In this document: positions 29,120 through 64,000 of the stretch, in pieces | How the letters are laid out: every line of letters begins with the position of its first letter | Numbering within the stretch: the first letter of the stretch is position 1 | Assembly (NCBI GenBank): GCA_017654855.1 | Contig: CM030335.1 | Coordinates: 1,612,001 to 1,676,000, forward strand | Reading direction: 5' to 3' | Length of the DNA: 64,000 nucleotides | Origin: Podospora anserina | Taxonomy: Eukaryota | The notes under the pieces: generated by a model | Databases searched by the model: none | Seen by the model: the letters and a program-made list of their open reading frames with translations, nothing else | What the model was told of the DNA's origin: nothing | Made by a program: the position numbers and the translations under genes

Positions 29120-30706
29120 ATGAACGGCTACCACCATCACAACGAACATGCCAACCGATACCACCATCGACCGACGGGGGGGTTTGCGTCTCGTGGTGCG
29201 CCTCCACCACTAGGGTTTTCTCCGGCGTCAACTGGGCTGCCACCGCTTCAACCTGCGCCGCGACGACCATCACCACCATCAGCGCATGCGATACCTTCGA
29301 CACCACCACCACCACCGCCGCCGCCGAGCGCTACCCCCCTTACGTCGATACGACACCAGCAGCCGATACACCACCACCACCAACACCACCACCACCAACA
29401 CCACCACCACCAACACCACCACCACCAACACCACCACCAATCGCACCTCATCACCTCAACAACATCACCACCTTTACCCTCCCCCTCCGCCTCCTCCATC
29501 CCATCAGAAACCCGCACCCTCCTCACCTACCCAACCCCAGGCCTCCCCTCCCCCCGAATAATCCGCCCATCCCAACCCCCCGTGCGATACCCCCCCTCAA
29601 CAATAAAATACAACAACTCCGACCCCCACCATCAACGACACATTGTCTCAACCCTCCAAACAACCTCCAACCTCCGAAACCTCTCCTTCTTGTTCCATCC
29701 CCCCGCCCCATCCCGACAACAACAACCGACCGATAGCAACGCCCACCTCCCCGCCCAAATCCAAACCAATCGCTGGCTCTGCTGCCAGTGCGCAGAAGAG
29801 GGCTTCGTCGACCCGGTAGGAACAGTCCACCTCGTGGGTGAAACAGAAGAGATGTACAGCACCTGCCTGTTCCGCCCATCCAGCTGCCACCACAAAAAGT
29901 GCGTAAACTGTGTTTTATACGCTGGCCCAGCCTCCAGCCGAGACCCGGTACGGGGGGTGAAATTTCTTGTTAGGACTGTTGGGGGGTTGTACACCAGTGG
30001 ACGGTTTATCGACCCTGTACGCTGGGAGTGTGGGGTATGCGGGGAGTGGGACAATAACAAGATTGACGGGGGGGTGAGGATGGGAACTGGTTGTCAAGGA
30101 CGGGGATGTAAAGCACAGGGATGGGGGGGTTGGGGAGGAGGGAGGAGGGGGGTTTTCACCCGGGAGAGTATTGTTCTCAATCGGTATGGACAGAGGCTGG
30201 GAACGGCGGATCAGAGGGTTGCCTTTGAGGGGGGGCCGTGGGATTGGCATAGACGGGGGTTGGGGGATGGGAGGTGTGTGTTGAGTAAAGGGGTTAGGGA
30301 GGTGCTGATGAGGAGGGGGGGTGGAGGAGGGGGAAGGGAGAGGAGGGTTTGGGGGGTTGGGGAGCAGGTTCCGGGGTATGAGTATAGGAGGCCGCCGCCG
30401 TTGGATGAGGATGATGAGAAGGAGAATAGTGAGTATGAGGGCGGTTTCCTGGCCGGGTTGCCGGTTGAGGGGGGGGATAAAGGGAAGGGGAAGGAGAGGG
30501 ATGGGGGGATGGAGATGGAGGGGGTGGTTTGTGGTGGGCAGGGTAATGGTATTGATAGCAGACATCATGGTGGAAGTGAAAGGCGAGAACATGGGTTTAT
30601 CAGCCCATCTTCTGCTACGATGACAACGACCAGAAGCCCGGATACGGGACAGGGGCAGGGAGCAAAACCACGCTTCTTTCCGGGGCTGTCAAATATGAGG
30701 ATGTAA
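29120..30706 (+). CDS. Hypothetical protein with a Pro/His-rich N-terminus and tandem Cys-rich (zinc-ribbon-like) motifs
   Basis: Long ORF (open from 28751; most likely ATG 29120). Contains a (HHHHQ)4 run, WLCCQC...C-x6-CHHKKCVNC and WECGVC...CQGRGC. Shows the C-to-G codon skew typical of real genes in this window. Confidence 0.8.
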   Translation: MNGYHHHNEHANRYHHRPTGGFASRGAPPPLGFSPASTGLPPLQPAPRRPSPPSAHAIPSTPPPPPPPPSATPLTSIRHQQPIHHHHQHHHHQHHHHQHHHHQHHHQSHLITSTTSPPLPSPSASSIPSETRTLLTYPTPGLPSPRIIRPSQPPVRYPPSTIKYNNSDPHHQRHIVSTLQTTSNLRNLSFLFHPPAPSRQQQPTDSNAHLPAQIQTNRWLCCQCAEEGFVDPVGTVHLVGETEEMYSTCLFRPSSCHHKKCVNCVLYAGPASSRDPVRGVKFLVRTVGGLYTSGRFIDPVRWECGVCGEWDNNKIDGGVRMGTGCQGRGCKAQGWGGWGGGRRGVFTRESIVLNRYGQRLGTADQRVAFEGGPWDWHRRGLGDGRCVLSKGVREVLMRRGGGGGGRERRVWGVGEQVPGYEYRRPPPLDEDDEKENSEYEGGFLAGLPVEGGDKGKGKERDGGMEMEGVVCGGQGNGIDSRHHGGSERREHGFISPSSATMTTTRSPDTGQGQGAKPRFFPGLSNMRM

Positions 30707-32564: not shown

Positions 32565-34947
32565 ATGGCGCCTTCCAATGGCACTGCTGAGAAGCCTTCT
32601 ACCCGGAAAGCTTCTTCCCACGTTGTTCCCGTTGTCCCTGTTCTCCCTCTCAGCTATGTGAAGCGGCTCCCGAATCAGCCAGCCACACCTTCCCCGTCTA
32701 CCCAAAAGGTTGACGAGCCTTCTACCCGACCTGCCAGCCCCGAGAAGAAGAATCCCGGCGATCATGAGGCTACCACACCGTCCGCTGCCACCATTCACGT
32801 CGCTACGTCTACATCATCTACTACCGCATCGAATAGCAATACTCCAGGTACGTGTATCTTTTTCTGATTGACGCTATCGACTGTTATAAGCGAAATGGTT
32901 CCCCTTCCCCAAAAGAATGGTGTCCACGGCCGTCCTCCATTGGCTTGTTGACTTGCAGCGTGTGGGTTTTGGTCTACGGCGTGTCTGCCTCCTACCCCAC
33001 AAGCGAAATCTTGCGACAATGACCTCTTTTACTCCAGTTGCACTATAGAATAGTGAGCTATGCTAACCCAGAGTGCGCACAGATTCTTCCACCATCTGTT
33101 CCGAGCCTACAGAGCAACCGTTTGTATCGGGTGCCCCTCCTCCTTCCAGTCATCACAACCCCGCATTTGAGCAGCCGGCGAGAACACCAGCCCCTGAGCT
33201 TCCTCTCCCCGCCCCACACCCGGCCATTGCGAATCCGCCAGTTTTCCACCATCCTCGCCCCAGTAACGGAAGCTTGGTGTTTGCTCATCACGAGTCTAAC
33301 GCCTCCTCCCCTGTCCCTCATTCGGGTGGCTACGGTTTCCCCCCTCCTGGAATCGTGCCATACCCACCGTCTGCCGCTCTCCCAGTCACCGCTGTTGACG
33401 CCTACGGCCGTCCCTTGTTGGTATCACCGACAGTAGATTCTTATCCGCCGACTGTCATAAAGCATCACGGGCCACCTACTCCCCATAGCTACCACGGCTC
33501 ACAATCTTCCCAAATTGGAGATCACATCTACAACCAGCATTCGACCATGAGCGGCACTCATCCAATCATGAACGGCACTCATCCAACCATGAACGGCACT
33601 CATCCAACCATGAACGGCACTCATCCCACTATGAGCGGCACTCATCCGACCATGAGCGGCGCTGGCCCGGTCAACGGCGGCCAGGGAGGAATTCGTGGTC
33701 CTCAGCCTACCACCAATGGTGTTCAACCCACAATCAACGGCTCTGGACCCTATCATCCTACCGGGGGTATGAGCCCCGAGGCCGCGGCTGCATTAGCACA
33801 CCATATGAACTCGATGTCGCCTTACATTAGGGCTGCGCTGGGCGACAACTCGTACAGTGATTGTACTCTAGACGTGAATGTCCCAGTCAGCCACATCTTC
33901 CAGGATCACCCCGACTGCAGCCGACTGAACACTGCCATTCGAACGCCAGCGCATCGGCTTATGCTTGGTCGCAGTCCAATGCTTGCTGAGAAGATTGGAG
34001 AGGATGGTGTCCAGGCCGGCGGTGTCTTGAAATTAGAGGTTCGTGATGAATGGATTCGGCCGGACGTGTTTTGGCATTGCCTCCGTGCGCTATATGGTTG
34101 GGATATTGCGGCCGGCAACCTACCGAGCCAATTACGCCACTGGAGTGCCAAAGACGAGCTCAAAACCGCCCTTAGCTACTGGGCTGCCGGTCAGATGTTG
34201 CTGTGTCCTCGGATTCGGGCTATCGCTTCGGACTGCGCAAGGAGATTGCTTGGGTGGGAGACGATCAGTATCGCCGCTTGGTTCGTTTCGCACAACATGG
34301 CTCTGGGACCCAGCTTGACCCACGATGTGTTCCTCGACAGCACTCTGAACTGGATAATCTATCATCTTCCCCAGAGCTTTGATGTGGACGAGAACGCGGG
34401 AGACTGTGGGTTTTCTCGGCTCCCTCGTGCCAACCAGTCGGCGTCTTACAGACCAAATCCGCCTAATGCACACGTGTCGTCGCGTGTTGCTGCCAACCCG
34501 AGGCTGTCTAAGATCCGGTTCGGAGATCTGGCAGAAGAAGGATTTGACGTCGATCAGCTCTATCCCGGCAGTCCATTCACACCCGCTCAGGTCAATGGTC
34601 TCTTTTCTAGGATATTGCTGAACCTTCCATTTGACCTGCTCAAGCATGTCCTGGAGCACCCCAATCTCTGCTCCAACGCCGGGCCTCTTCCGCCGGGACC
34701 TCGTTTGCGGATTATTGATGCGGTTCGGGCGGCGCGGGAGAAGCGACGATGGGAGTTATTGGAAAGCACCGACATGCAAGTGCGTGTCTATCAAGAGCGG
34801 ATCGCGTCTCAGCCGGAGCCTGTTCCTGTGGTTAATTTGGCCGACTTTTGGCACAATAGCTTGGGCTTCAAGGAAGAGACTTTTATCGGTGACGTGCCAT
34901 TCCTTATTCGCACCTGGAGTCTTGGTCCTGAAGGTAGCGACGTCTAG
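32565..34947 (+). CDS. Conserved fungal hypothetical protein, Pro-rich N-terminus plus a degenerate BTB-like domain (2 exons)
   Basis: CATA ATG start and intron 32848..33082 in frame. Motifs YSDCTLDV...PAHRLMLGRSPML...VFWHCLRALYG, FSRILLNLPFDLLKHVLEHP and AREKRR. Confidence 0.88.
33547..33660 (+). repeat. Coding minisatellite, 21-nt unit x about 5.4 (M[NS]GTHP[TI])
   Basis: ATGA(A/G)CGGCACTCATCC(N)AC(C/T) repeated in tandem, with one ATC (Ile) variant in the first unit. Confidence 0.95.
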
Positions 34948-39589: not shown

Positions 39590-42170
39590 GGCCTGAAGAC
39601 ATGAATTCGGGGTTGCAATTATTTGTGCCCTCCCCTGTTGAGGCAACAGCTGTCACTGCAACATTTGATATCACCTTGCCCTCTACCGTTGCTTGGAGGC
39701 AAAAGTCGGCCGCAGGAACAGGAACAGCTACTTGGAGATGTGGCCATCAGCGACGGGATACTGCAGCATGACTTGGGGAGAAAGCTTGTCGGTCGGTTCG
39801 TGCCGGAGACGAAGCTCCTGGAACCAGGCGTGGAAATACGGGGAGTACTGGTGAAGTTGCGGACAGAACAGGCATGGGAGCTGCTGCAGACAGATGTTGC
39901 CAGCAATCTTGAGGTCTTGAAAGGGAAAATCTGGTCTTCTGGTTATCCTGGTACGCGTTGGGATTCTCTTTTCAGATCGGACTACCTGCACAAGAATCGC
40001 GGTGAAGAGAAATGTGAAGAGTGTGCAGGTGATGATGGAGTCTGTATGCGGTCGATTGAGATGACTTGTCAACAGCTCGGCTGCAATGAAACCGAGACTG
40101 TGATTCGCCGAAGGTTGGATTATCAGAGTGGCTCTATCATTCACATTGGACGCGTAGGTTCTGGGGACACGGTGATGAGGTTGGGAAAGGATCGTGATGA
40201 GATTGTGGAGCGAGATGGCATCATTGCATTTGAGATGGAAGGTGCTGGGGTGTGGGAGACCTTTCCCAACTGCTTGGTCATCAAAGGCATCTGTGACTAC
40301 GCGCATCGTCACAAGAACAAACAATCTCAGGGATATGCAGCTGCGACCGCAACCGCCGTCGCAAAGTCGTTTTTGAGAGTCTGGGACACATGTGAACATC
40401 AACATTCACCTCCAAAAAAGAGTTCGTAGCTGATGAATTCTCTAGGCATTCAAGAGGTCCCAAGAGATTTAGAGCCTCGGGAAGTCGAGAAAAGCGGGCA
40501 ATTTCCCGGCTGAGGCTCACGGCCTGTTGGACGTGCTGTTTACAACACCATATCTAGACCGCAAGAATCGTAATCCCGATGTGGTCCAGGGTACCTGTGA
40601 GTGGTTTATCCAGCATTAATTATCTTGCCAGTGGGAAAGGGGGGCGTTTCGAACACTCTGGGTATCAGCGGACCCTGGGTGTGGGAAATCAGTCCTGGCC
40701 AAACATCTGGTGGAGGATGTCATTCCAACCACCACGGCTCGAAAAACCTGTTACTTTCTTTTCAAAGACGATGTTGAGGATCAAAAGACAATGAACAGCG
40801 CGCTGAGTTGTGTATTACATCAGCTCTACTTAGTATTGTCGAACCCAGATTGCCTCCCGGCCGCCACTAAAAGCAAACTGTAAACAGATCCTGAGGGCTT
40901 CAAGAGCTCATGCGCCTGAACAAAACCGGAGCATGCCCGATTTAAGCTTCATTCTGACTAGTCGACCGCTTCAGGCCATTCGACGGGAGTTCCAGCTCAG
41001 GGACAGCCCGGGTTCCTCTGTAATCCACCTACGTGGTGAAAGTCAGGAGGAGATCCAGAAGATATCAGACGAGATCAACATCTTCATTCGAGCCAGAGTG
41101 CAAAGTATCGCTTCACTCTTTGGACCTCGAAGACAATGAGAAATACTTCCTTCTGAACCGGCTCCTCAGTGTCCCGCATCGGACTTACCTTTGGGCGCAC
41201 TTGATACTCGACTTGATCGAAAAGGCGGCCGATATAGACAAAGTCGGAGATGGATGAAGCCTTGCTGCAAACGGTCAGTGCGATTTGCTACAGGTCCAGA
41301 ATAACTATCCAGTATGGTACGAAGCTTATTGCTGGTCTAAATCCTCTCCTGGCGCGTTGACAGTGGCCGTCAATACCGGGCTTCTTCAACTGGTGGAGAT
41401 GATGTTGAAGTCAAGAGACGCCCATGGTAATGACTCTCTCAACGAGGGAACTGGCTAGCTTTAGCAGAACAAAATGGGACAAACACCTGTTTATGGAACA
41501 GCTTCTAATCTTTGTGTTGGTGAGGAAGAGGCCCTCCACTTCGAGTAAATCAAGTTACTCCTTGAAGCTGGCGCCGAGCTTTATAACATCGGCGAGCATG
41601 GTAGCACTCTGGTATGTTCTTTTTTTTAGCTTCGCTTATTTCCCCTCTTGTCTGCCAGATTGCGTCTCTGACACGTCCATGATTGGCAACAGCTTCATGT
41701 TGTCGCCCGCTACTGCCTCAGGGTGCAACCGGAGCCGGTAAAGTTGGTGTTGAACACCGGTGTAGATGTCAACCATCGACGCGAAGACGGAATTACAGCG
41801 GTACTCCTCACCTACAACCGGAGATGATACGACTATTGGCCGAACACGGTGCCAAAGTGGACGGAATTCTGCAGCATACTAGCGGACCTTTCGGCAACGA
41901 ATCGGTTCTGTCTCGCCTATTGCAACTAGGATCGCTTATACCGGAGTAGAGACTGTATGTACTGGAAGCTTTGCTCGATGCTGGTGCCCCCGTCGATGAA
42001 CGGAATGGTGATTCGCTTACACCACTTTTGCGAATCGCAATTCATGTTTCCGGGTTGAGTTCAAAGTTGGCAAGGCTACTTACTGGTCGAGAGAGGGGCA
42101 GATGTCAATACAGTAGATGCAAACCGAAGATCGGTACTCTCGTGGGCTGTTTCAGGATCTTGTAGTTGCA
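39590..42170 (+). pseudogene. Decayed NLR-like gene: PNP_UDP (nucleoside phosphorylase) - NACHT - ankyrin
   Basis: Fragments in the expected order but in different frames. PNP_UDP: HEFGVAIICALP/VEATAVTATFD, LLGDVAIS, IHIGRVGSGDTVM, AFEMEGAGVW, LVIKGICDYA. NACHT: NPDVVQGTCEWFIQH*, P-loop LWVSADPGCGKSVLAKHLV (about 40656-40712), FILTSRP, HRTYLWAHLIL. Ankyrin pieces: LLAEHGAKVD, LLDAGAPVDERNGDSLTPL. Confidence 0.88.
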
Positions 42171-60351: not shown

Positions 60352-61614
60352 ATGTCCCTCCCCCGCGGCCTCAAATCCGTCCTTACCAAAGCCCCCACCG
60401 ACGTGGTCATCCTCTCTGCCCTCCGCACCCCCATCACAAGGTCCTACAAGGGCGGCCTGAAAGACGCCTACCCCGAAGAGTTGCTGTCCACCGTCCTCAA
60501 AGCCACCCTCGACGCCAACCCCAACCTCGACCCGAAACTCATCGAGGATGTCGCCGTCGGCGTGGTCCTCAACGAGCTCGGCGGGTCTAAGGCTGCCCGC
60601 ATGGCGCTCAACCACACCCCCGGTTTTGACACGAGCTCCACCTCCCTTTACACCGCCAACCGGGCTTGTGCCTCGTCGCTGCAGGCGATCACCTTGGTTG
60701 CGAGCCAGATCAAGACCGAGATGATCAGTGTTGGTATTGGAGCCGGTATGGAGAGCATGACAAGGAACTACGGCACGAGGGCGATTCCAGTTGATGTCTG
60801 GCCTGAGTTGAAGGAGAGTCCCGTCAAAGAGGCGAGGGATTGCGTGATGAGCATGGGGATCACGAGTGAGAATGTTGCCGAGAGGTATAACGTCTCGAGG
60901 GAGGACCAGGATGCCCTGGCTGTGGAGTCTCATGCTCGTGCTGCCCGCGCGGTGAAGGAGGGGTGGTTTGACAAGGAGGTTGTTCCTGTCCACACCAGGT
61001 TCCAAGAGGTGGATAAGCAGGGGAATAAAGTTGGGGAGGAGCAGAGGGTGACTGTGACAAAGGATGACGGGATCAGGGAGGGGGTCACGCTTGACAAGCT
61101 GGCGAAGCTGAAGCCGGCGTTCAAGCCTGATGGGAGGAGCACGGCGGGGAATTCCAGCCAGGTTAGCGATGGGGCTGCGGCGGCGCTGTTGATGAGACGG
61201 AGTACCGCTACTGAGCTTGGGTTGACGGGGCAGATTATGGGCAAGTTTGTTGCTAGTGCTGTTGCGGGGTGCAAGCCGGATGAGATGGGGATTGGGCCTG
61301 CGATTGCGATTCCTAAGTTGTTGAACCAGCTTGGGTTGAAGAGTGAGGATGTTGATCGGTGGGAGATTAACGAGGCGTTTGCTTCCCAGGCGCTGTACTG
61401 TGTGAGGGAGTTGGGGTTGGAGAAGGAGTTGGCGGCTGGCAAGGTCAACCCTGATGGCGGTGCTATCGCGCTGGGTCATCCTCTTGGTGCTACTGGTGCG
61501 AGAATGGTCAGCACGCTCATGCATGGTCTCCAGAGGACGGGTGGTGAGGTTGGTGTTGTGAGCATGTGCATTGGTACTGGTATGGGTATGGCTGGTGTTT
61601 TCGTTCGGGAGTAA
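60352..61614 (+). CDS. 3-ketoacyl-CoA thiolase
   Basis: Catalytic motifs NRACASSLQA, GMESM, TAGNSSQVSDGAAA, EINEAFA, GGAIALGHPLGATG and SMCIGTGMG. Intronless. Confidence 0.97.
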   Translation: MSLPRGLKSVLTKAPTDVVILSALRTPITRSYKGGLKDAYPEELLSTVLKATLDANPNLDPKLIEDVAVGVVLNELGGSKAARMALNHTPGFDTSSTSLYTANRACASSLQAITLVASQIKTEMISVGIGAGMESMTRNYGTRAIPVDVWPELKESPVKEARDCVMSMGITSENVAERYNVSREDQDALAVESHARAARAVKEGWFDKEVVPVHTRFQEVDKQGNKVGEEQRVTVTKDDGIREGVTLDKLAKLKPAFKPDGRSTAGNSSQVSDGAAAALLMRRSTATELGLTGQIMGKFVASAVAGCKPDEMGIGPAIAIPKLLNQLGLKSEDVDRWEINEAFASQALYCVRELGLEKELAAGKVNPDGGAIALGHPLGATGARMVSTLMHGLQRTGGEVGVVSMCIGTGMGMAGVFVRE

Positions 61615-63056
61615 GCAAACCAAGAGGGGAATGGGTGTCGTAGCATAGCGTCCTGTACGATTTAGTGTCTTGGTTAGGTACTGGGTTGGAAAATTGGGAA
61701 TGGATAATGAAGACATGTGTTTACATTATAAATGTTGCCCTGTATGCTGTGTATAAAAATCATAACGAACCTGTTTCCACTACTCTGGGCATGTGTTCTT
61801 GTCGCGACTCCTTAGGCGAGATCACATACGTCATACTATATTTATCCATCTATGGTCTTATAAGACTCCAGCTTCAAAGAAGCTATTGTTTCACATAAAC
61901 GAGCTTGGATTGTGAACAGAGAAGACTGGGGTTATCAAGACAAGAAAATGTAACATCGTGTTACCTAGGGTGTGATGCTAAAATTGAAAGGGGGCGAAAC
62001 TGTGTTGAGAACATTGAGATATAAAGGAGTTGGTGGGTAGTATCCGTCCCAACTATGTTAGTGGTTTCTCTGCCACCTTGTTGGCCTCAAAATTGCATCA
62101 GAATGCGGATGCAGTTGAATAACACGCTAGTCGTCAAACTCATGATTACCCTAGGCAGGTAGGTTTATTGTCTCTTTATTCATGGTTCATGGATTCCCAA
62201 TTTGCTTTGTAGCGTGTGTTTAATGATTTCCTTCCCCAATCCCTGACTGCTATACGTATACAGTCTGTCTGTTGGCTATATGGGAATGAGTTGGACCTGC
62301 TCTTCCTGTTGAGGGGGAAACGTAAACATTGGCCAAGGCCTGAGCGAAAAATGTTTATTCAACCTACAGAGTATGACAATGGCACATTACCCGGTTCGTG
62401 CGACTGGCCAGAGCATCTGGATTAGAGTTGTAAATTCGTCTCCATGCTCCCATATATCTTGTGTTAAATAGGTGCACTCAGACCAATACAATCGAGAAAA
62501 GTTCATCAATTAGTCCATTCTACTCATAATACACAAACATAATCTTCCTTGAAAAAGAACTTCCCAACGTCCTGTTTCCGTCACCGCTGGCTTCCTTAAC
62601 CAAAATCAACACAAATCAGAACAAAAATAGCGGGTATCAAATAAGTCCTCAAACCATTCCCTCCAAGCCAACAATCAACTCCATTCCCTTCCCCTTTCAA
62701 CGCAAGTAGCATCGCTCGAGTACTCAATCGACGAGAAATAAATCCCTTCTCCACCAGGACACTAGTAGGTTTTATGCCGCTAGTGTAGCCCTAGTGACTA
62801 GCGGTTGGTGATGTCATCTTCCTCTGATTTTCAAGAGGGGATGAAGTGGGCAAAGATATCGAGGGGAGAGGTATGATGTGAAAAGGTTTCGGTGAGGTGT
62901 TGGTGAGATCGAGGTCACGGGGCTGTCCCGTGATGTGACTCCTGGCTGGCGAGGGGCGAGTGGTGTAGGGTGTAGTAAGAAAGAGGCGCATTGAGAGCGC
63001 TGTCCTCATGTCAAGGCTTCCACCGGGGAAGATGACTGTATCGAGGTGACTGGCGC

Positions 63057-63158
63057 TTAGACGCACTCGCCGCATTGGGGGTGCTGGCAGTGGACACAGG
63101 AGTTGCTGATGACGAGCATAGCTCCGCACTGGCAGCAGCGAGGTTGGTAGGCAGACAT
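63057..63158 (-). CDS. 33-aa Cys/His-rich microprotein MSAYQPRCCQCGAMLVISNSCVHCQHPQCGECV (putative zinc or other metal binding)
   Basis: CCATA ATG TCT start context and TAA stop. 7 Cys and 2 His in a CCxC-x9-CxxCxHxxCxxC pattern with C-ending codon bias. A/C-rich 5' leader and TATATA at 63317-63322, about 160 nt upstream. Confidence 0.7.
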   Translation of the reverse strand: MSAYQPRCCQCGAMLVISNSCVHCQHPQCGECV

Positions 63159-64000
63159 TATGGAGGTGTTTGCAAGGGTACTAGCTCGAGGCTGCGATGC
63201 TGAACAGAGATTATGTTTGTCTTGATGTTTGAGCAGATGGCAGGACTGGAGCAGTGATGGTAGGGAAGAGAAAGAAAAGAAGTGCAGCCTAGCTACACGG
63301 TTGGGGGCTACCGAGCTATATACTGAAACTCAAAGGTCAGGACTGCCTTGGGGTGGCAAGTTTCCCCGGAAGGTGTGGGCGTTTGGGTGATGGCTTGGAG
63401 GTCGAGGTCGCATGACCACAACGAATAGGAAGCCAGGCTGAGGCCGGTTTCCGGAGAAGCGGGAGATGACTTGGGGTGTCTTTGTTCCCCAGGCGCCCTG
63501 TTGACCGAGAATTGTCTTGGAAAACACCCTTGGATCAGCAGCTTTTCTCTGGGGAAATCGTGAGATGGACCTCAAAGAAGGTTCAAAATGGCCTGGTGCG
63601 AACTGCAATGCCTCCCACAGTCCATGCAGTGCATCCCCTGGCTGCAGTAGCTTGGGTGTGATCGAAGCTTCCCCGCAGCTAATCAAGCTCTCGGGATTGG
63701 CTGCGTCACCAGACTGTCACCAATCAGCGAAAGCCATGAGCTTTCGAGATTTGGTAACGTTTTGTTTCGTGGGGGCTGCCGGAATCCCCCGGAGCGACAC
63801 CATCACCACCCTCACCATTCCCAGCCCTGTGGTTCGCCGCCGTCGTGGCCGGCAACTTTCTATTGAGTGGGGGATCGTCCGAATAGGGAAGAAACGACCC
63901 CGAAGACCCTGTGGGACACACGGTCAAAGAAACGCACTGACGGGACTGACGTGGGTGGTGTATCCGATGTTGAGTTGCCGCTGAAAAGATGCCGCCTCGA

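Follow-up and report, generated by a model that had tools for sequence, protein, structure and literature searches.

The analysed stretch (the window) comprises 64,000 nucleotides of Podospora anserina contig CM030335.1, positions 1,612,001 to 1,676,000 of the forward strand. On the minus strand at 63057–63158 lies a 33-codon frame that runs from ATG to TAA in a single exon and encodes a Cys/His microprotein. Its translation is the one quoted in the original prediction, and the plus strand at the same positions carries an unrelated frame. The chain contains 7 Cys (21% of the residues), 2 His and no other domain. By eye, no long hydrophobic stretch was seen at the N-terminus, in agreement with the predicted lack of a signal peptide. 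No joint was found inside the coding sequence across the four sequencing runs compared. The start context had been described as strong, and an A indeed occupies position -3 of the ATG. The TATA box had been placed about 160 nt upstream; it turned out to be a TATATA word at 63317–63322 on the minus strand, 164 nt from the ATG. The nearest ATG upstream of the start is at -255, farther out than the TATA box. A probable ATG-free 5' leader covers 63159–63246 (minus strand), where 63246 is the end of the transcript-like contig X14, 71 nt downstream of the TATA box; the other two contigs of this kind extend upstream of this leader end and beyond the TATA box.

Small Cys-rich ORFs are not rare by themselves: the window contains two, compared to a mean of 0.58 and a maximum of 3 in 40 Markov shuffles. 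The Cys/His spacing pattern, which was composed after the peptide had been seen, occurs once in the window and in none of the 40 shuffles. The second small ORF with at least seven Cys (42 aa, 39619–39747, minus strand) overlaps the end of a longer frame and is within the chance range of the shuffles. A 94-aa ORF at 62791–63075, which overlaps the microgene, was rejected as not conserved; its Met is present in one of seven loci, with a stop 12 residues on. Elsewhere in the window, a 466-aa ORF has several tandem 7-residue repeats at its start (33547–33640).

Neighbourhood and transcript cover

The microgene is convergent with a 3-ketoacyl-CoA thiolase gene, as had been predicted. The thiolase gene (Pfam Thiolase_N and Thiolase_C) occupies 60352–61614 on the plus strand, outside the microgene, and its product groups with proteins that bear names from the P. 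anserina species complex and relatives. The original prediction also gave the microgene an empty territory of 2.4 kb. This territory is gene-free, but it measures about 3.7 kb and reaches past the window end to a vWA-Vint (Hint-like) gene (L003:1327-3884), which stands head to head with the microgene. The first exon of the vWA-Vint gene opens almost directly with the vWA domain, and no U-box or RING was seen ahead of it. Gene order is kept on both sides in metagenome locus L004, on the thiolase side in L005 and on the vWA-Vint side in L006 and L012; the thiolase is convergent with the microgene in L004 and L005 as well. In Apiosordaria backusii, the accession of the microprotein model is two numbers away from that of the thiolase.

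Contigs from three runs of three studies cover the microgene within the outer limits 62346–63672 (X1 62492–63544, X3 62513–63672 and X14 62346–63246). These runs were guessed to be RNA, although none of the 24 runs listed is recorded as RNA, and were found using this same stretch; their contigs give neither strand nor level. In two of the three, the bin toward the thiolase has no cover, and a genome-sized run, X18, is continuous over 62346–63672. The RNA nature of one run fits with intron-like joints that it shows in the vWA-Vint gene. Taken together, this is a hint only that the microgene is covered as a separate transcription unit. The accessible text of PMC9801653 describes a gene prediction limited to unannotated transcripts above 1.5 kb, a length that a unit of about 1 kb does not reach. 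Beyond the window end, contigs from all three RNA-guess runs also cover the stretch L002:7364-8068, upstream of the vWA-Vint start and between both promoters; it may represent a leader or else a non-coding RNA of its own. In all four runs, loose ends gather at 36 nt (61563–61598) where the thiolase gene ends, probably owing to a similar sequence at another place in the genome. One run shows a 69-nt backward joint just behind the thiolase stop (61627–61695).

Conservation of the 33-codon frame

Searching 1.84 billion representative proteins, we found eight matches, seven of them true relatives; the eighth (P0013, a 1502-aa repeat protein) was dropped as spurious. The named relatives include Apiosordaria backusii and Mycothermus thermophilus. 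Most relatives are longer models of 79–272 residues with unrelated extensions, and we infer that these are artefacts of gene callers that extended the frame wrongly; one of them, P0019 (90 aa), could truly be longer than 33 aa. A protein search of the P. anserina genome returned the microgene itself as the sole match. In a metagenome scan we obtained 11 loci, nine of which carry the 33-codon frame with start and stop in place. The other two (L013 and L014) are spurious; their match lies within a long unrelated frame that has no C-terminal cysteines. All seven Cys are invariant in the seven sequences aligned. The original prediction named conservation of the frame and of the Cys positions as a check, and both were found.

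Across the loci the frame is 73–85% identical, while the 60 bases on each side reach 18–38% ungapped and the flanks are unalignable. The selection-rate comparison suggested for the gene came out in its favour: pooled pN was 0.146 and pS 0.428 for the window against seven distinct loci, with L005 and L010 left out because their coding sequences equal those of L004 and L009, respectively. Some pairs have pN close to pS (0.156 and 0.16 for the pair L004–L009), on small counts. Of the 33 columns at each codon position, 14, 8 and 21 vary at positions 1, 2 and 3. The stop codon is TAA or TAG across loci. The antisense frame whose third positions coincide with those of the coding frame gives a similar ratio (pN 0.174 and pS 0.353) but is interrupted by stops, and the remaining alternative frames are stop-broken or show no comparable third-position bias. 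The conserved part extends exactly from the ATG to the stop codon, with changes mainly at third positions, which indicates a coding frame. Thus, comparison of the loci gives good support to a protein-coding frame under purifying selection. The ORF is very probably a real gene of filamentous fungi, and we are nearly certain that it is translated; the hidden, conserved, stand-alone gene of the original prediction is borne out.

The degree of conservation is that of the housekeeping neighbours. In L004, the peptide is 85% identical, compared to 81% for the thiolase and 48–69% for pieces of vWA-Vint; in L012, the peptide is 64% identical, compared to 64–71% for a ribosomal-protein-like gene. The gene is therefore conserved like the adjoining enzyme, and yet its product is missing from the protein collection of this genome; the exact 33-aa peptide was absent from a collection of 15 billion proteins.

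Promoter and downstream elements

The TATA box has counterparts in the orthologues. A TATA-like word was found at -164 to -233 in seven of eight sequences; the eighth has only 171 nt upstream. At 63352–63359 on the plus strand, 37 nt upstream of the TATA box, lies an Rpn4-like site, GGTGGCAA, whose 7-nt core recurs in the orthologues. The core, TTGCCAC, precedes the TATA box by 31–54 nt and keeps one orientation in four of the five lineages with enough sequence, and is present in the fifth with one mismatch; in the background there are 30 such sites per 125,595 bases. Sharing of the 7-mer GGTGGCA is by itself not significant (controls averaged 0.77 such words); what stands out is its position and orientation, both noticed after the fact. 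The reverse of TTGCCAC resembles the yeast Rpn4 site.

Farther upstream, a distal element at 63642–63703 (minus strand) combines a CCAAT box, the CreA/CRE-1-like word TGCGGGGAA (63669–63677) and a further conserved word (63642–63651). We found TGCGGGGAA at -519 to -625 in four of six lineages, the other two having less than 450 nt upstream; none of 300 Markov controls yielded any 9-mer common to as many lineages. In the window, L004 and L006, it lies within the longer conserved element with the CCAAT box. The CRE-1 motifs in the accessible part of PMC7084071 are TSYGGGG and SYGGRG; TGCGGGGAA fits the former, and its single change, in L004, still fits the latter. About 1,650 nt separate the distal element from the divergent vWA-Vint gene, which it could also serve. 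Downstream of the microgene, in the probable 3' UTR, the word TGATACCC (62632–62639, minus strand) is conserved on the sense strand in five of six lineages and in none of 300 controls. It was not found in sense within the first 1 kb behind the match in any of 34 control genes, and a literature search returned nothing related to such a word. We also inspected eight promoters for copper, zinc, iron and AP-1 response motifs, a weak test in which these were absent or scattered.

Membership of the microgene in a proteasome regulon was rejected, as 20S proteasome promoters carry GGAGCT and rarely the Rpn4-like word. GGAGCT was found in 13 of 14 upstream regions of 20S genes, and GGAGCTC in 12 of 14 compared to 4 of 20 controls; the Rpn4-like word occurs in 3 of 14 and in 2 of 20 controls. 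Among the microprotein promoters GGAGCT is merely scattered. The genome-wide search for the Rpn4-like word 22–52 nt before a TATA box gave 8 matches compared to 16 in the reversed control, and no regulon emerged from it. The euascomycete proteasome promoter motif in the accessible part of PMC526180 is in line with GGAGCT(C) here. According to the same source, the Rpn4 orthologue of Neurospora recognises such sites in vitro, its targets are unknown, and the orthologue in filamentous fungi is apparently no driver of proteasome genes; the rarity of the Rpn4-like word at the proteasome genes of P. anserina agrees with this. We regard it as unlikely that the microgene is among the targets of this orthologue and, at the same time, the founder of a fungal two-zinc-ribbon orthogroup of free regulatory subunits. 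If this were true, the CreA-like element and the Rpn4-like site would place a 33-residue modulator of a conserved partner under the influence of carbon status and of a stress factor. The site in the microgene promoter offers a concrete test of the role of the Rpn4 orthologue in filamentous ascomycetes.

The protein, its proposed role and known families

In the seven sequences aligned, 17 of 33 positions are invariant: M1, Y4, R7, C8, C9, C11, G12, M14, V16, I17, S18, C21, C24, H26, Q28, C29 and C32. Eight of these are Cys or His (the seven Cys and His26), and besides the initiator Met eight non-ligand residues are invariant, including a hydrophobic run and a Tyr. His23 is replaced by Asn or Ala in two of the seven. 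The original prediction assigned about two zinc ions to 7 Cys and 2 His; of the two His only His26 is conserved, but eight conserved ligand candidates suffice. The microprotein probably binds two zinc ions. One site would consist of C8, C11, C21 and C24, and the second of C9, H26, C29 and C32; this division is deduced, not read from coordinates. At position 9, two other modules of this genome carry His and a third carries Cys, which suggests that the residue there is a ligand.

The first structure model, built from seven sequences, had a pLDDT of 60 and no match with Z of at least 2. An AlphaFold2 model from 13 sequences reached pLDDT 81 and pTM 0.45; it was made with no zinc, and its alignment included three modules of the same genome picked by the analyst. 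According to the accessible part of PMC12383448, AlphaFold 3 confidently folds random Cys-rich peptides of similar size. The best structural neighbours of the second model are RanBP2/NZF-type fingers, with Z up to 3.2 and rmsd 2.0–2.4 over 29 residues. Of 23 chains with Z of at least 2, 19 belong to this type, as classified by their titles or known family, and their Foldseek TM is 0.57–0.67, compared to 0.26–0.35 for RING and LIM. The matches are weak (Foldseek E was 0.8 or higher throughout, and Z at most 3.2), as expected for only 33 residues. With these weak scores, the predicted zinc-ribbon-like fold agrees with the model. The score of a four-zinc homodimer prediction (0.02) weighs neither for nor against. 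In Pfam, the window peptide matched no family at E up to 10, and among the seven alignment members there was a single match in one (DUF7130, E 2.7). By sequence profile, B-box and RING fingers come out on top, with no significance. In the Atlas, the peptide is nearest to ascomycete clusters of 54–58 aa with no family name (0.85–0.88), which is a lead only.

Similar modules exist elsewhere in the genome. A Cys/His pattern search of the genome (36 Mb, 9 contigs) gave 19 matches compared to 12 in the control, so most are chance. Modules similar to the microprotein emerged from it in three contexts: a gene of contig C7 with tandem modules, a gene on C8 and a spliced pair on C1 and C6. The C7 gene (L031:990-2130) is spliced and holds two complete tandem Cys/His modules and an apparent third, partial one; it had no match in the local Pfam library, and a search of the genome with its module found only itself. 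Spacing in its module 1 is identical to that of the microprotein, and hhalign aligns the two with no gap (probability 74%, E 2.8e-5). The C8 module (L033:1497-1595, minus strand) has the same spacing, with His at position 9, and lies inside a longer frame. The paralogous pair (L017:1358-1566 on C1 and L028:1358 onward on C6) has an intron after the module's first Cys; one gives about 51 aa, and in the other a longer frame opens with the module. L017 has a weak B-box match (E 0.014). Identity of the microprotein to modules of larger proteins is 27–30%, almost all of it at ligands. The gene at 29120 had been thought to carry the matching module. Its module (29774–29914, plus strand) is distantly similar: both ends are alike, but the match covers only 12 columns with a probability of 5.9%, the spacer has about 30 residues, and the spacing within the middle Cys pair is six where the microprotein has two. 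On spacing and alignment, the closest module in this genome is that of the C7 gene, not that of the gene at 29120. Among the forms found, the microprotein is the smallest free one of a Cys/His module that also occurs in larger fungal proteins, themselves uncharacterised.

The best explanation, which we consider about evenly balanced between right and wrong, is a two-zinc ribbon adaptor that binds one conserved partner and whose output is set by its promoter. A single-exon gene with its own regulated promoter would produce a 33-residue intracellular protein made of one metal-binding module. C8, C11, C21 and C24 would hold one zinc in a RanBP2-like two-hairpin ribbon, and C9, H26, C29 and C32 would hold a second, both metals being structural. 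Y4, R7, M14, V16, I17, S18 and Q28 would form a surface for one conserved partner, most likely a protein. The CreA-like and Rpn4-like promoter would set the amount of microprotein and in this way tune the partner.

A metal buffer or a metal/redox sensor that takes up and releases zinc or copper like a small metallothionein is rather unlikely. A chain of 33 aa with 21% Cys, no other domain and its own TATA promoter would suit it, and the accessible part of PMC12508003 lists characterised fungal metallothioneins of 33–35 aa. However, there are no CxC repeats, the metal and AP-1 response motifs are absent or scattered across the eight promoters, and the same module also occurs within larger proteins. 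Eight invariant non-ligand residues are probably more than a chelator should need, and for this reason a binding surface would fit better than a plain metal buffer. Modules in larger proteins could also mean that the microprotein is a dominant-negative competitor of such proteins, for example of the C7 tandem-module protein. The identical spacing of C7 module 1 and the further modules at 29120 and, by the pattern search, in at least three other genes are in its favour. Nevertheless, the 27–30% identity lies nearly all at ligands, and the invariant surface residues are not kept in the larger modules, leaving no evident common target; we find this competition quite improbable.

Other Vint proteins carry a RING or U-box at the N-terminus. 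The microprotein might be a detached partner of the divergent vWA-Vint protein that replaces this domain. The head-to-head linkage in the window, L004, L006 and L012, kept even where linkage to the thiolase is lost within 5 kb, and the neighbour's first exon starting nearly straight with vWA would agree with it. General synteny is sufficient to explain the linkage, however, as other neighbours are kept and only one locus is rearranged, and the model is not RING-like; such a partnership is very improbable. A cross-braced B-box or RING-like finger acting in ubiquitin ligation has, in our judgement, a slightly smaller chance still. Without gaps, its Cys spacing agrees with that of TRIM28 B-box 1 (E 0.15) and of Polycomb RING fingers (E 0.25 and above). 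However, no match among the B-box/RING profiles is significant, the chain ends at residue 33 and so lacks the last ligand pair of both families, and the fit to RING and LIM is poor (TM 0.26–0.35, rmsd 6.6–8.7). Finally, the frame might be untranslated and its conserved 102 nt might be an RNA or DNA element, which would account for the 33-aa product missing from the protein collection. Since conservation is bounded by the ATG and the stop, TAA and TAG are both used, changes are mainly at third positions and the other frames are stop-broken or lack such bias, this is extremely improbable. The promoter-set adaptor remains the reading that we prefer.

A literature search on this microprotein gene, in which titles and abstract starts were matched and few subscription journals were covered, found nothing, and we compared the microprotein with families that are similar in kind. 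Metallothioneins are CxC- or CC-rich chains with few conserved hydrophobic or aromatic residues. Fungal metallothioneins are similar to the microprotein in size and Cys content, but the microprotein has mostly CxxC pairs, no CxC repeats and invariant Y4, M14, V16 and I17; its spacing is unlike that of CxC-rich metallothionein, as had been predicted. With B-box 1 and RING-HC it shares the spacing of six ligands, while the last ligand pair is missing and the chain ends one residue after C32 in all nine loci with the frame. As for the cross-brace of RING and LIM, the zinc-free model fits these chains poorly. The ascomycete family PF26652 (Zn_ribbon_double, "probable double zinc ribbon") belongs to the same taxon and is likewise conceived with two zinc sites. 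Against the C7 tandem module, an Atlas cluster that contains this family scores 0.80, a lead under 0.9; its representative has 225 aa, and the family is not among the Atlas rows listed for the microprotein itself.

RanBP2/NZF fingers (Nup153, RanBP2, Npl4, TAB2, ZRANB2) are the 16 best-ranked entries in the structure search and, like the predicted two-hairpin ribbon of the microprotein, have the order C-x2-C ... C-x2-C. In NZF fingers a Thr-Phe pair is located after the second Cys. The microprotein lacks this pair and has Gly-Ala, Gly-Thr or Asn-Gly after C11. According to the accessible part of PMC12383448, ubiquitin binding by NZF needs Thr and Phe, and the RanBP2 signature is W-X-C-X(2,4)-C-X3-N-X6-C-X2-C. 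In all microprotein orthologues the Trp of this signature, two residues before the first Cys, is Pro, Ser or His; the Asn is Leu, Phe or Val, and the spacer is 9, not 10. The microprotein also has four further conserved ligands (C9, H26, C29 and C32) and is a free-standing gene, not a domain. As modelled, it would resemble a RanBP2-type ribbon and yet it fails the signature of that family. The one-domain zinc-finger micro-proteins of Haloferax volcanii are likewise very small and free-standing, with paired CxxC motifs; they are archaeal, have a C(P)XCG motif, and are likened to the microprotein by kind, from the descriptions available. Small zinc-ribbon proteins are thus known, and the microgene is not a new kind of system but a real gene that gene finders missed or extended wrongly.
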